From an uncultured Candidatus Rokubacteria bacterium (GTDB lineage Bacteria > Methylomirabilota > Methylomirabilia > Rokubacteriales > DASRDR01), in contig CAWDVE010000010.1 in assembly GCA_963805625.1 (NCBI GenBank), forward strand, positions 1,792,001-1,856,000: a stretch of DNA of 64,000 bases. Reading direction: 5' to 3'. Position 1 is the first letter of the stretch. Each line of letters opens with the position of its first letter. The notes beneath the pieces are model-generated. The model saw only the letters and a list, made by a program, of their open reading frames with translations. It had not been told where the DNA came from and did no database searches. Below are positions 21,678 to 26,483 of the stretch, one piece after another. Position numbers and translations under genes: made by a program.

Positions 21678-22741
21678 AACCAGCGGCGCTTGTCGACGAC
21701 GGTCGCGAGGGGCTCGCTTCGCGCGAAGCGACCAACGTTGTCCAGCAGCACGGCGAGGTGCCGCTCGGCGATCCGCGGCGACGCGCCGGCGACGTGGGGC
21801 GTCAGGATGACGTTCGGCATCGCCCAGAGCGGATGCTCCGGGGGCAAGGGCTCGGTCTCGTACACGTCGAGGCCGGCGCCGCCGATCTCGGCCGCCCGTA
21901 GCGCAGCAACGAGGTCAGCCAGGTCGACGATCGCCCCGCGCCCGATGTTGATCAGATAGGCGCTCGGCTTCATCTGCCGGAACTGCGCGCGGCGGAAGAG
22001 CTTCACCGTCTCGGGTGTGTGGGGCGCGGCGATCACCACGAAGTCGCTCTCCCCGAGGAGGTCGGGCAGCCGGTCCAGACGCCAGAGGGCCGCCACCCCC
22101 GGGGGTGCCGACGCCTGGATCGGGTCGACGGCCAGGACCCGCATTCCGAAGGCGAGCCCGCGCCGGGCGATCTCCGAGCCGATCTGGCCGAGTCCAACCA
22201 CGCCGAGCGTGGCGTCCGCCAGGTGCAAATGGGAGCGGTCGACGGCGCTGACATGCGCGGGCCCCGTAACGAAGTCCGACGGCTCCGCCTTGCCGAGCTT
22301 GTCCTCCACCTGGCGACGGGCGTTGCGCGCCACGGCCCGGACGGAGCTCTCCGCTTTGCCACCGAAGGGCGCCCAGCGGGCCTCGAGCTGGTTCCGGATG
22401 TAGTGGTGGAAGTTCCGCGCAAAGCAAAGGACGTAGCCGAACACGTGGTCGGCGATCACGTCCGAGTAGAGCCCGCGCATGTTCGTGAGCAGGCACGGGT
22501 GCTCCACGAGCTCCGGGAACATGTAGTGCTCGAGACTCGCCGTGGGCGCCTGCACCCAGCGGAGCTGTCGCGCTGCGGCGAGAAGCCCGGGGGTGAGCTT
22601 GCCAAAGAAGGCGTCGGCATCGACGATCGCCGCGCGTGCCTCGCCCTCGTCCCCGGCGTTGATGACGACCATGGAGCGGGCCGCCTCGACGATCTTGGCG
22701 AGGCGCTCCGGCTCGACGGCAGGATGGATGACGAGCTTCAC
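21674..22741 (-). CDS. D-2-hydroxyacid dehydrogenase
   Basis: GVVGLGQIG, INIGRG, LDVYETEPL and TPHVAG motifs; GTG start overlaps the upstream stop. Confidence 0.9.
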   Translation of the reverse strand: MKLVIHPAVEPERLAKIVEAARSMVVINAGDEGEARAAIVDADAFFGKLTPGLLAAARQLRWVQAPTASLEHYMFPELVEHPCLLTNMRGLYSDVIADHVFGYVLCFARNFHHYIRNQLEARWAPFGGKAESSVRAVARNARRQVEDKLGKAEPSDFVTGPAHVSAVDRSHLHLADATLGVVGLGQIGSEIARRGLAFGMRVLAVDPIQASAPPGVAALWRLDRLPDLLGESDFVVIAAPHTPETVKLFRRAQFRQMKPSAYLINIGRGAIVDLADLVAALRAAEIGGAGLDVYETEPLPPEHPLWAMPNVILTPHVAGASPRIAERHLAVLLDNVGRFARSEPLATVVDKRRWF

Positions 22742-24060
22742 GCGCAGGGCTCCTTCGTGGACTCCGGGGACTCTTGGGACTCTTGGGACTTTGGGGACGG
22801 GGTAGTGCCGGCCGATGCAGCCGAGCCGGATGTGTCGATGTCGAAGTCGAGCCGCCGGTGGGCCGCCCGGAGAGCTTCCTCGACGGCCTCGGGCGAATCC
22901 GCCCGCGCGAGAAGGAAGCCGAGATAGCGCGACCCCTCGGGGAGCGGGACCAGCTCCTGGCCGACGTGGGCGCTGATCGTCACCTCCTCGATCCCCGGGA
23001 CGGCGAGGGCCGCCTCGCGGCCCCGCACGGCCCGGAGCACCCCGGCGCGGGGGATGGGGATCATCATGACGGCGGCCGGCTGCCGCTCTCGCTCGAGCGA
23101 GTCGAGCTCGATCCCGAGCGCGTGGCGGATGACCAGCTCCTCCAGGGACAGGCCCGCCCCGAAGCGCAGCGTGCGCGAGCAGAGGCCGCCGATCGTGCGG
23201 GCGGCAAGCTCGATCATCCACGGCCCCTCGTCGTTCACGCGGAGCTCGGCGTGGACCGGCCCCTCCGCAAGCCCGAGCGCCCGGGCCGCCCAGCGCGCCT
23301 CGGCCGCGATCGCGAGCTGGACGTCGGGGGACAGGCGCGAGGGCGTCACGTAGATCGTCTCCTCGAAGTACGGCCCATCGAGCGGGTCGGGCTTGTCGAA
23401 GAGCGCCAGGACGTGGAGCTCGCCCCCGACCAGGAGCCCTTCGAGCGCGACCTCGCGGCCGGGAATGAAGTCCTCGACCAGCATCTCCTCCCGCCCCTCG
23501 CCGAGCTCCGCCGAATCCGGCGAGCCGAGGATCGCCGCGATCCGGCGAAAGGCGGCGACGAAGGAGTGCGCGTCATCGGCCCGGATCACTCCGCGGCTGC
23601 CGGCGAGGATCGTCGGCTTGAGAACGCAGGGATACGTCACGCGGTCGGCCGCGGCCTCGGGATCGTCGGAGACGTCGAGCAGCGTGAAGCGCGGCGACCG
23701 AACGCCGGCCCGGGCGAAGGCCTCGCGCATCCGGTGCTTGTTGCGGGTCGTGGAGACGGCCTCGAGGGAGCTCGATCGGAGACCGAGGCGCTCGGCGATG
23801 GCGGCCCCGACGACCGTGGTGCGGTCGTCGACGGGGACCACGGCGTCGACCGGGTGGCGTCGCGCGAACTCCGCCACCGTCCTCGCCGCCTTGATCCTAT
23901 CGCCAAAGTCGAGGGTGAGGAGGTTGTCCGGTAGCGCGGATTCGAGGACGTTCGGCCGCTCCGACGCGACCACGAGCTCGACGTCGAGCTTCGCCGCCGC
24001 GGCGACGAAGTCCTCCGTGCGGTACGTCGTCGTCGGGATCAGGAGAAGCAGGCGCAGCAT
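22738..24060 (-). CDS. ATP-grasp domain protein
   Basis: NKHRMR, VLKP...GSRGV, VEDFIPGRE, HAELR and IELAARTIGG motifs. Confidence 0.88.
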   Translation of the reverse strand: MLRLLLLIPTTTYRTEDFVAAAAKLDVELVVASERPNVLESALPDNLLTLDFGDRIKAARTVAEFARRHPVDAVVPVDDRTTVVGAAIAERLGLRSSSLEAVSTTRNKHRMREAFARAGVRSPRFTLLDVSDDPEAAADRVTYPCVLKPTILAGSRGVIRADDAHSFVAAFRRIAAILGSPDSAELGEGREEMLVEDFIPGREVALEGLLVGGELHVLALFDKPDPLDGPYFEETIYVTPSRLSPDVQLAIAAEARWAARALGLAEGPVHAELRVNDEGPWMIELAARTIGGLCSRTLRFGAGLSLEELVIRHALGIELDSLERERQPAAVMMIPIPRAGVLRAVRGREAALAVPGIEEVTISAHVGQELVPLPEGSRYLGFLLARADSPEAVEEALRAAHRRLDFDIDTSGSAASAGTTPSPKSQESQESPESTKEPCA

Positions 24061-24143
24061 GCGAGCCCTAGGAACAACGCCCGGCCGGGCCGGGAGACCC
24101 GAGTCCGGGCGCGCGCGCCCAGGGGATCAGGCGGTGAGGCGGG

Positions 24144-24431
24144 TCAGGCCTTCGACGGGGCGTAGTAGGGATTCGTGCCCGAGCCGTGATCCGTGGTGTC
24201 CAGGACCTCGGTGACCTCGGGGATCTCCTCGAAGATCATCCGCTCGATGCCAGCCTTCAGCGTCACGTCCGCCGCGCCGCAGCCCTGGCAGCCGCCCGAC
24301 ATCCGGATGTAGACCGTCGACTCCTTGACGTCGATCAGCTCGATGTAACCCCCGTGGCCCGAGACCGCCGGGTTGATGGCGCTGTCAAGCAGCTCCTGCA
24401 CCTTGTCCTTGAGCGCACCCTCTTCCGCCAT
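24144..24431 (-). CDS. NifU/Nfu-type Fe-S cluster carrier
   Basis: INPAVSGHGGYIEL...MSGGCQGC; GGAGG RBS. Confidence 0.9.
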   Translation of the reverse strand: MAEEGALKDKVQELLDSAINPAVSGHGGYIELIDVKESTVYIRMSGGCQGCGAADVTLKAGIERMIFEEIPEVTEVLDTTDHGSGTNPYYAPSKA

Positions 24432-24524
24432 CCCTGTCCTCCCTCTCGAGCACGACCCCGCCCTCCCGTCACGGCAGGACGGCTCGTGACCCATTCTACC
24501 CCAGGGACGGACTCGCCGCCCTGC

Positions 24525-25976
24525 TCAGAGCGCGCTCCCGACCGGCCGTCCCCGGAGGGCCAACTGGCCCTCGGTGGGCTCCGCTCAGCAGAACCACGGC
24601 TCGGTCAGGCGCGGCGGGCGCGCCCGCTCCGGGAGCACGCGCCCAGCCGGCAGCGTCCGGGGCGGGGCCCCGGCCGTGGCGTCGACACACGCTCGCACCT
24701 GGTCGAACGTGACGGCGTCGTCGGCGTGAGCCTCGGCCGCCGCCTCCACGACCCGGGTGACCTCGGCCTGGAGGGCGTCCATCCGCGGGTCCGGATGGGT
24801 CCAGGTGTAGGAGAACGCTCTCTCGACCAAGGGGCCGAGGTGGGGGCGCATCGCCGGGTGGTCGGTCAGCAGCGAGCCCGGTGGTACCAGGAGCCGGAGC
24901 GAGTACTGGACCGGGTCCACCGCGTCCACCAGGTCCTCGCCGTCCACGAAGTCGACCATCGCCCGGTAGTCGTCGAGCGTCGTCCAGGGGGTGAACGCCA
25001 CCCAGGTGGGCCGGAGCGGGATCCCGACCTGGCGCATCAGCCGGACGAGCTCGACGACGTCGGAGCGCGTGTGGCCCTTGTCGAGGTGCCGGAGCACGGT
25101 GTCGCTGAGTGACTCCACGGCCGAGACCACGAAGGCGCAGCCGAGCGTCCGGAGCTCCGACAGCATCGACCGGTGCCGCAGGAGGTGCTCGACCTTTGCC
25201 GTGAAGTCGAAGCTCACGTGCGGGAATGCCCCGTGGAGGGCCCGAGCCACGGCGAGCGCGTGCCGCGGGCCGTTGAGGAAGTCGGGGTCGCCGATCGTCA
25301 CGTGCGTCGCCCCCGCCTCGACGCACTGGCGAACGTCGGCCAGGACCACGTCCGGCGGGACGACGAAGAAGCGCCCGCCGTACACCGGTGGGATCGGGCA
25401 GTGCCGGCAGAGATGCTTGCAGCCGCGACTCGCCTCCACGTACCCGACCAGTTCAAGCCGCCCGTCGCGCTCGAGCCGCGCGTACTGCTTGAGGGAGGGG
25501 AGCGCCGAGCGACTCGGGACGGGGAAGCTGAGCCGGGCGAGGTGCGGCGTCGCAGGAAGCGCAACTATCCCCACGCCCGGGACGGGCTCGCCGGTGCCGG
25601 CCTCGAGCGTCTCGATGAGCGTCACGAGCGAGGCCTCCGCCTCACCGCCGATCACCGAATCGACGCCGTGGGCCAGCAGGTACTGGGCGTTCAGCTGTGC
25701 GTAGAGGCCGTATGCCACGACGTGACACGAGGGGTTCACGGCGCGCACGCGGCCGATCAGCGCAACGCCGACCCGGAGTGCGGTGTGCATCGGCACGGAG
25801 ACGGCGACGGCCCGCGCGCGCGCCACCTTGTCCGGATCGAAGGGCTCGACCGAGACGTCCATGACGGCTGGCGCGTAGCCGCGCGCCTCGAGGAACGCCG
25901 CCGCCCACGCGACGGCGAGCGGCTGGTGGCCGAGCTCGTAGCACGCGACCAAGAGGACCGCCCCTGGCTCTCGCAT
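24525..25976 (-). CDS. B12-binding radical SAM selenoprotein with CUAEP tail (UGA at 24585-24587 read as Sec)
   Basis: N-terminal cobalamin-binding-like region, RGCKHLCRHC (CxxxCxxC); readthrough gives ...TEPWFC-U-AEPTEGQLALRGRPVGSAL*. Confidence 0.85.
24555..24572 (-). promoter_or_regulatory. Putative bacterial SECIS hairpin
   Basis: GAGGGCCA-GT-TGGCCCTC, beginning 12 nt after the in-frame UGA. Confidence 0.7.
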
Positions 25977-26047: not shown

Positions 26048-26483
26048 GTGCGTGCGATCCCGGAACCCGGTCGCGGCGCCGCCCCCCTCACCGTCGTCAT
26101 CCCCATATGTCACGGGTGGCCGGCGATCCGGCCCTTCCTCGACCACCTTCGCGTTCAAGCACTGGCCACGGGCGCAGAGGTCATCGTGGTCGACGGCAGC
26201 ACCGTGCCTGCCCCGCCGGCGGAGGCGCTCTGGCCCGGACTCGTGTGGCTCCGCGAGGCCCGCGCGGGTGTCTTCGCGCTCCGGGCGCTCGCCCGGCGGG
26301 CGGCCGGGGGGGCCATCCTGGCCGTGACGGAGGACCATTGCCTGGTCGCCCCGGACTGGGTGCGCCCGCATCCTCGAGGCGTACGCGAGACATCCGGAGG
26401 CCGTCGCGATCAAGGGCGTCGTGCGGAACCGCAGCCACGGTCGGCTGTGGTACTGCGTTGCTGACACGCTAGCGCTGGGCTAG
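26048..26483 (+). pseudogene. Glycosyltransferase family 2 fragment, frameshifted and truncated
   Basis: LTVVIP...EVIVVDG...TEDHC; +1 frameshift near 26360, after which the other frame continues (C)ARILEAYARHPEAVAIKGVVRN and stops early. Confidence 0.6.

Follow-up and report, generated by a model that had tools for sequence, protein, structure and literature searches.

A predicted selenoprotein of the CUAEP/CCAEP-tail radical SAM family and its recurring ATP-grasp ligase neighbor

The nearest characterized relative of the protein described here is ArsL, an enzyme of arsinothricin biosynthesis that is described as the only CxxxCxxC enzyme cleaving SAM to an ACP radical. According to two reports, ArsL splits SAM into MTA and a 3-amino-3-carboxypropyl (ACP) radical or Fe-ACP species, and transfers the ACP group onto As(III) held by its RCCLKC tail (bioRxiv 2024.02.01.577332; 10.64898/2026.04.29.721666). 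The tail binds no auxiliary cluster, and the enzyme, which has the same architecture as our protein, was reconstituted in vitro with no mention of cobalamin (bioRxiv 2024.02.01.577332). ArsL activity is reportedly lost on single Cys-to-Ala changes (10.64898/2026.04.29.721666). An 'MCCA' variant of ArsL carries no weight here, since the passage describing it does not name the residues changed. A further point of reference is provided by the CU-motif selenoproteins HgcA, SaoL, SaoB and SaoC, in which Cys-Sec alternates with Cys-Cys and for which Haft & Gwadz propose heavy-metal binding (10.1101/2022.07.06.499078). A vicinal Cys-Sec motif is common to these proteins and ours, but the families are unrelated and the analogy is of the motif alone. 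The same preprint lists NF040546, the 'CUAEP/CCAEP-tail radical SAM (seleno)protein' family, as an uncharacterized CU-motif selenoprotein (bioRxiv 10.1101/2022.07.06.499078). We found no biochemistry or function for this family in the literature searched, which mostly excluded subscription journals, and the family is not named in the main text of a 2026 selenoproteome review.

We analyzed a 64-kb stretch of DNA (hereafter, the window) from a 7.27-Mb genome of ~70% GC. The gene of interest lies on the minus strand of the window, a detail missing from the earlier note on this DNA. Its open reading frame starts with an ATG at 25976, runs for 463 codons and ends ...RLTEPWFC before a TGA at 24587-24585. 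The frame reads on, as that note had proposed, through AEPTEGQLALRGRPVGSAL up to a second TGA at 24527-24525. Comparative sequence evidence indicates that the first TGA is almost certainly read as selenocysteine, Sec464, giving a protein of 483 aa, although the public database entry is 463 aa long, i.e., it ends before Sec. The gene and its coding features, all on the minus strand, are as follows.

24525..25976, minus: coding sequence of the CUAEP-tail radical SAM selenoprotein, 483 aa with predicted Sec464 (NF040546, 687.1 bits against a cut-off of 500)
25617..25955, minus: N-terminal cobalamin-binding-like (Rossmann) domain, residues 8-120 (PF02310, 33.4 bits against a cut-off of 32.1; structure model)
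25398..25421, minus: CxxxCxxC [4Fe-4S]/SAM motif CKHLCRHC, with C186, C190 and C193 (PF04055; the three Cys are invariant in 83 aligned sequences)
24588..24590, minus: Cys463, which opens the vicinal Cys-Sec pair (in alignment, the counterpart of the first Cys in the RCCLKC tail of ArsL)
24585..24587, minus: in-frame UGA, predicted Sec464 (homologs have TGA or TGC/TGT here; selA tracks TGA)
24528..24584, minus: read-through tail AEPTEGQLALRGRPVGSAL (in 84 distinct TGA-form tails Glu and Pro never change, while their codons vary synonymously)
24525..24527, minus: true stop, the second TGA (no SECIS-placed hairpin; relatives stop 14-24 residues past Sec)

The protein passed the NF040546 model both as the table-11 open reading frame (666.7 bits) and when read through (687.1 bits), and it carries the family's C-[U/C]-A-E-P tail, CxxxCxxC motif and radical SAM barrel. 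Membership in a CUAEP/CCAEP-tail family without an assigned function, which the earlier note had suggested, was thus borne out. With the same B12-like plus radical SAM architecture, the same W-F-C-U-A-E-P tail and the same Sec/Cys interchange, we found no family-level difference: the recoding is real but already catalogued, and the protein is an ordinary member of a curated selenoprotein family. The observations that are new here are a test of the SECIS hairpin against Cys forms of the gene and an association with an ATP-grasp ligase and Fe-S carriers; for NF040546 we found neither in the literature searched. Named close homologs belong to Candidatus Rokubacteria/Methylomirabilota, which is most likely also the group of the source genome. 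A Pfam search returned Radical_SAM (PF04055) and a marginal B12-binding domain (PF02310); judged from its sequence, cobalamin binding by the N-terminal domain is putative, and 'B12' serves here as a fold label only. The AlphaFold model has a pLDDT of 95.5, falling to 76 over residues 461-470, and its C-terminal end is disordered.

Among characterized families ArsL (NF040542) scored highest, at 320 bits, and the next family reached 64; identity to a named Burkholderia cepacia ArsL was 34% over 407 aa. The two proteins share the CxxxCxxC motif, and the C-terminal vicinal Cys-Cys of ArsL aligns with the Cys-Sec of our protein. Forty-eight positions, C463 included, are conserved in both the ArsL and CUAEP families, and 14 are conserved but different, one of them being the residue before the third cluster Cys (His in the CUAEP family vs Tyr in ArsL). 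Our protein differs from ArsL in lacking a third tail Cys, in an insertion of ~40 aa before the tail, in having Sec for Cys, and in its gene context, with no arsM or arsQ beside the gene and a ligase partner instead. Whereas 120 of the ArsL-like homologs end in KRCC[L/I]KC, our protein ends in C-U-A-E-P. Identity as ArsL itself is ruled out by score (320 bits against the ArsL cut-off of 450), tail and gene context.

ArsL was nested inside the CUAEP family in two quick trees, rooted with four long-branch outgroups from the source genome and built on 75 and then 46 retained rows, but an AU test did not reject a separate ArsL clade (p 0.35), and this nesting is not established. One CCAEP-tailed protein, P0235, has near-equal NF040546 (363) and ArsL (333) scores and branches as the sister of ArsL, which makes it a good candidate for testing whether ArsL chemistry reaches into the CUAEP family.

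Three-dimensional comparison of the model gave a different set of neighbors. AprD4, TsrM, OxsB and MgmA matched with TM scores of 0.56-0.68 at 13-20% identity, and TokK also matched; the top match was the diol dehydratase AprD4 (TM 0.67-0.68, 20% identity). AprD4, TsrM, OxsB and MgmA share the cobalamin-binding-like plus barrel fold with our protein, but have no Cys-Sec tail and a different chemistry. A sequence search of the PDB yielded only weak matches, to MgmA and AprD4, and we saw no ArsL entry among the PDB matches listed.

Two genes follow the radical SAM gene in the window, in the order radical SAM gene, nfuA, ATP-grasp ligase.

24144..24431, minus: NfuA/NifU-like Fe-S carrier, of which we found no second copy in the genome (PF01106; a neighbor at 30-32 of 80 GTDB loci)
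22738..24060, minus: ATP-grasp L-amino-acid-ligase-family protein (PF13535/PF18130/PF18603; best PDB match BL00235, E 9e-41)

The longest nfuA frame opens at 24494, and its probable start is at 24431. For the ligase, the ESM Atlas returned its Pfam families only; BL00235 makes Met-Gly and Met-Met, according to its description (PMC6920838). Across 80 GTDB loci the ligase (46-67% identity) was a neighbor of the radical SAM gene at 35, NfuA at 30-32, DUF169 at 17, YggX at 13 and IscA at 6, in varying order, and across 80 metagenome loci the corresponding counts were 27, 22, 7, 4 and 2; these are lower bounds, as many loci end short. No function for DUF169 was found in the literature searched. Genome-wide, the ligase was present in 46 of 50 carriers of the radical SAM gene and in 15 of 289 non-carriers. 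In a phylum sample of 151 genomes drawn for a Gemmatimonadales record, all 11 genomes with the enzyme fell within the 25 that had the ligase; in a second sample of 151 genomes, drawn for a Nitrospirota record, the counts were two and three, again nested. The non-carriers with the ligase numbered 14 of 140 and 1 of 149 in these samples. The dependence is one-way, as the ligase-NfuA pair also exists without the radical SAM enzyme, which was absent from 14 of the 25 ligase-bearing genomes of the first sample. All 20 ligase loci that we fetched had NfuA alongside, whether or not the enzyme was present, and 11 of the 20 had metE, although these loci are close kin. In the first sample's phylum the ligase-nfuA pair often occurred with metE, Mrp/ApbC, a USP/PCP_red protein and ferredoxin, a grouping that extends to genomes in which we found no copy of the radical SAM gene. 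We consider the ATP-grasp ligase a consistent partner, with which the enzyme likely works.

Arsenic genes behaved differently. We found arsM near the radical SAM gene at 1 of 160 loci (80 GTDB and 80 metagenome), and it was not enriched in carriers of the Gemmatimonadales-record sample (9 of 11, vs 108 of 140 non-carriers); the source genome's own arsM is on another contig. No arsQ-type permease recurred among the neighbor families of the loci, and no cobalamin genes recurred among the neighbors of the 80 GTDB loci.

We propose that the enzyme, like ArsL, transfers ACP to an acceptor, which the Cys-Sec pair would clamp, and that peptide ligation follows, with NfuA servicing the cluster; arguing by analogy with ArsL, we hold this scheme to be quite possible, if somewhat short of probable. 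In the first step SelB would bind the hairpin at +13 to +30, and Sec-tRNA would read the UGA to give the 483-aa protein. The C-gamma-S bond of SAM would then be cleaved, to MTA and an ACP radical or Fe-ACP species, by the [4Fe-4S] cluster, whose supply or repair probably falls to NfuA or, in other lineages, to YggX, IscA or Mrp. Third, the flexible Cys-Sec tail would present a two-ligand acceptor, and in the fourth step the ATP-grasp ligase would couple the resulting Glu/Met-like amino acid to another one. Such a pathway would have no need of cobalamin. What we observed directly is the gene structure, family, Sec machinery, SECIS behavior and partner linkage; our assessment covers the second to fourth steps jointly.

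With two thiol-type ligands, methylated As(III) is a better fit than arsenite. Our leading candidate for the acceptor is a methylated As(III) species, though an unlikely one when taken singly; a sulfur or selenium species comes next and is slightly less likely, and we leave a small chance for some other acceptor. The ArsL relationship at 320 bits, the shared C463, the ligase linkage and the likeness of the ligase to BL00235 speak for the scheme. Against it stand the two chalcogen ligands of the tail vs the three of ArsL, in which single Cys changes are said to be inactivating, the ~40-residue insertion, the 14 differing positions, the unestablished nesting of ArsL, a ligase-NfuA pair that occurs without the enzyme too, and the arsenic genes, which neither cluster nor co-occur with the radical SAM gene. 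The gene is also found in 37 of the 41 genomes of its order, so that it looks like a housekeeping gene rather than part of an antibiotic cluster, which counts against the scheme as well. The earlier note had suggested metal(loid) or methyl handling by the Cys-Sec tail; the metalloid half fits the ArsL relationship, whereas the methyl/B12 half loses ground to the marginal PF02310 match and to the absence of cobalamin from the account of ArsL reconstitution.

A broader reading, more speculative and on balance unlikely, is that the family is a widespread housekeeping counterpart of ArsL, a second ACP-radical CxxxCxxC enzyme with a Cys-Sec clamp that, together with the ligase and NfuA, builds an As, Se or S amino-acid peptide. 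This reading would extend to Rokubacteria, Gemmatimonadota, Acidobacteriota, Chloroflexota, Planctomycetota, Nitrospirota and Poribacteria, lineages common in soil and sediment. If the much larger CUAEP family shares ArsL chemistry, soil bacteria of high abundance would have a small-molecule pathway that is open to direct testing; natural Cys forms make such testing easy, and the partner ligase is now identified.

Of the other explanations that we weighed, the strongest, if still somewhat unlikely, also accepts Sec insertion but assumes canonical 5'-deoxyadenosyl-radical chemistry, with an amino acid or the dipeptide of the ligase as substrate, with Cys-Sec as a vicinal redox centre (an electron shuttle or resolving pair) and not an acceptor clamp. 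One ArsL report states that nearly all CxxxCxxC enzymes make 5'-dA radicals (10.64898/2026.04.29.721666), AprD4 is the top fold match, no link to arsenic genes emerged and the tail is unlike that of ArsL. By sequence, however, ArsL is far closer than any other characterized family (320 vs 34-64 bits) and shares the tail Cys position, while AprD4 is just 20% identical and heads a set of listed PDB matches in which we saw no ArsL entry.

We regard it as improbable that the enzyme is a class B radical SAM methyltransferase, dependent on cobalamin, in which a methyl group or metal(loid) is handled by the Cys-Sec tail. PF02310 does pass its cut-off, TsrM, OxsB, MgmA and TokK are among the fold matches, and Haft & Gwadz point to the CU motif of HgcA as precedent (10.1101/2022.07.06.499078); the PF02310 score is marginal, though, methylase families score at most 64 bits, ArsL with the same domain was reconstituted without cobalamin being mentioned, and the neighbors include no recurring cobalamin genes. 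Equally improbable, in our estimation, is a role in Fe-S or cofactor maturation, in which the tail would bind an auxiliary cluster or sulfur from NfuA, IscA or YggX and the product would be a cofactor or a protein modification, not a free peptide. The recurrence of NfuA, YggX, IscA and DUF169 beside the gene across lineages fits such a role, as does a gene that is near-universal and mostly single-copy in its order, but the ArsL tail binds no auxiliary cluster (bioRxiv 2024.02.01.577332), and carriers beside a [4Fe-4S] enzyme are expected under ArsL-type ACP transfer too.

The case for recoding rests on conservation: the hairpin tracks TGA across phyla and WFC-TGA-[A/S]EPT is kept. The order, source genome included, yielded 41 matches to the gene, 38 of them with one TGA and the remaining three ending before the tail. 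WFC-TGA-[A/S]EPT appears at each of the 30 loci retrieved from the source genome and related ones, and the frame closes 14-24 residues past Sec with TGA, TAA or TAG. Three relatives (G004, G016 and G039) have two gene copies, one of the G004 copies being split into two frames. In viral contigs we found no relative. Across 80 GTDB loci spanning many phyla (the top 80 of 592), 59 had TGA, 16 had TGC/TGT and five were cut, so Cys stood at the UGA position in 16 of 75 loci with a readable tail, as it did in 30 of 75 metagenome loci; CCxEP tails also occurred in 40 of 150 representative homologs. The Cys homologs that the earlier note had proposed to look for thus exist, and AEP is conserved both after UGA and after Cys, so that homologs do not simply end at FC. 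In 84 distinct TGA-form tails the Glu and Pro past the UGA were invariant while their codons varied freely, showing that translation passes the UGA. We also found selA in 31 of 34 TGA-form genomes vs 5 of 16 Cys-form genomes, a comparison covering all 16 Cys loci and 34 of the 59 TGA loci after Rokubacteria and near-duplicates were left out. The five Cys-form genomes that keep selA (L070, L078, L079, L080 and L084) indicate that the Sec-to-Cys change takes place without loss of the machinery. Seven changes between Sec and Cys were needed on the tree; related genomes are non-independent, so p-values for these contrasts overstate their significance.

The hairpin that follows the UGA has the features of a bacterial SECIS element.

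24555..24572, minus: bacterial SECIS, 7-bp stem with an AGUU loop at 24565-24562 (consensus of PMC13188914; TGA vs Cys contrast; codon bias)

The hairpin, GAGGGCC-AGUU-GGCCCUC, spans +13 to +30 from the UGA. The 12-nt spacer given in the earlier note was correct, but the 8-bp stem and 2-nt GU loop drawn there need correction: the stem has 7 bp, and the loop is the 4-nt AGUU. This loop begins at +20, with G at +21 and U next. The published consensus places the bacterial SECIS at 16-37 nt past the UGA and has a G at loop position 1-2 (PMC13188914). Our hairpin agrees with that consensus on all four points, with a 4-nt loop, a 7-bp stem, G in loop position 2 followed by U, a 19-nt spacing and a fold energy of -13.7 kcal/mol, and we found no difference from it. 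The fold has a z of -3.8, with 0 of 200 shuffles as stable; longer fragments around it are unremarkable for ~70% GC DNA (z -0.5 to -2.0), as is the fold downstream of the second TGA (z -0.37). Scanning the genome behind a coding filter, which dropped the radical SAM gene from the scanned set, we found SECIS-like stems of at least 7 bp to be rare after coding-like ORF ends, without enrichment after TGA (11 of 3105) relative to TAG (15 of 1376); TAA gave 1 of 218. By itself, then, the hairpin proves little and is modest evidence for recoding.

The contrast between TGA and Cys forms is sharper. In the 80 GTDB loci, a stem of at least 5 bp around +21 occurred at 55 of the 59 with TGA but at 1 of the 16 with Cys. 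The +20/+21 anchor was picked after these first data had been seen and was then used unchanged on the second set of 80 metagenome loci (75 readable), where the stem occurred at 43 of 45 TGA loci vs 1 of 30 Cys loci. Alternative stem pairs were seen in the GTDB loci at +17 (GC 69, AU 14) and +18 (CG 70, GC 8, UA 8). In TGA-form tails the Gln codon was always CAG (80 of 80) and the following Leu was TTG/TTA in 50 of 51, showing an RNA-level constraint on the loop. Covariation was weak when 27 close relatives were aligned without gaps, with one of seven pairs changed on both sides and the score reached by 11 of 500 shuffles, and RNAalifold gave no covariation bonus among close relatives. We attribute this weakness to sequences that are too alike and to 5-nt-loop variants that fall out of register, and we therefore adopted a per-sequence register.

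The genome encodes the machinery for Sec insertion, all four components of which the earlier note had proposed to look for. In a profile search we detected selA (576 bits vs a cut-off of 268), selD (395 bits, over its cut-off and with an in-frame TGA of its own) and the tRNA-Sec, selC (76.9 bits vs 47). selB comes after selA; as assembled, a homopolymer breaks it into two frames and it falls below its cut-off, which counts against recoding. The break lies at ~1485 of the fetched locus (G000:C21, ~224980). Contigs from four of four public runs had one extra base at this homopolymer, one of them being otherwise identical over 417 bases, and all 14 same-genus genomes exceeded the selB cut-off, 12 with full-length matches. 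The frameshift is most likely an assembly error, and the assembly likely carries homopolymer errors able to mimic pseudogenes. Contigs from RNA runs made up a small share and came mostly from other strains, and so were uninformative on expression.

That the TGA is a real stop and the product a 463-aa protein ending in Cys is a very improbable reading, which we regard as effectively refuted: 118 of the 120 best database homologs stop at the Cys463 position, hairpins are cheap in 70% GC DNA and selB is frameshifted as assembled, but these database ends come from gene callers, the Glu and Pro that follow the UGA stay fixed while their codons change freely, Cys replaces TGA in both sets of loci, hairpin and selA track TGA, and the selB break is absent from 4/4 runs. 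The earlier note's claim of a Sec codon with a SECIS element is upheld by the TGA/Cys interchange and the tie between hairpin and TGA. The recoding amounts to a correct re-annotation of a curated family, 118 of the 120 nearest database proteins lacking the presumed functional tail.

Other genes of the genome show a similar arrangement. The UGA of selD is followed by the hairpin GGGCCAG-AGGAU-CUGGCCC at the same +13 offset as in the radical SAM gene. Five more UGA-plus-hairpin genes, chosen by eye from 27 entries of the hairpin scan, match known selenoprotein families, two of them passing a cut-off. With SelD (C10:162221-163141), they count as other likely selenoproteins of this genome: two belong to the UGSC family, two are reductase subunits resembling GrdB/PrdB, and one is a rhodanese with a fused membrane domain.

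We found no sigma-70 promoter and saw two weak terminator-like sites, one of them between nfuA and the ligase (24080-24094, minus). A 93-base gap before nfuA (24432-24524, minus) contains a hairpin and a TAGAAT hexamer, and nfuA may, judging this stretch by eye, have its own promoter. On the plus strand, a divergent family-2 glycosyltransferase ORF (26048-26464) ends at 138 aa with its Pfam match stopping at residue 107, and may be frameshifted or truncated.
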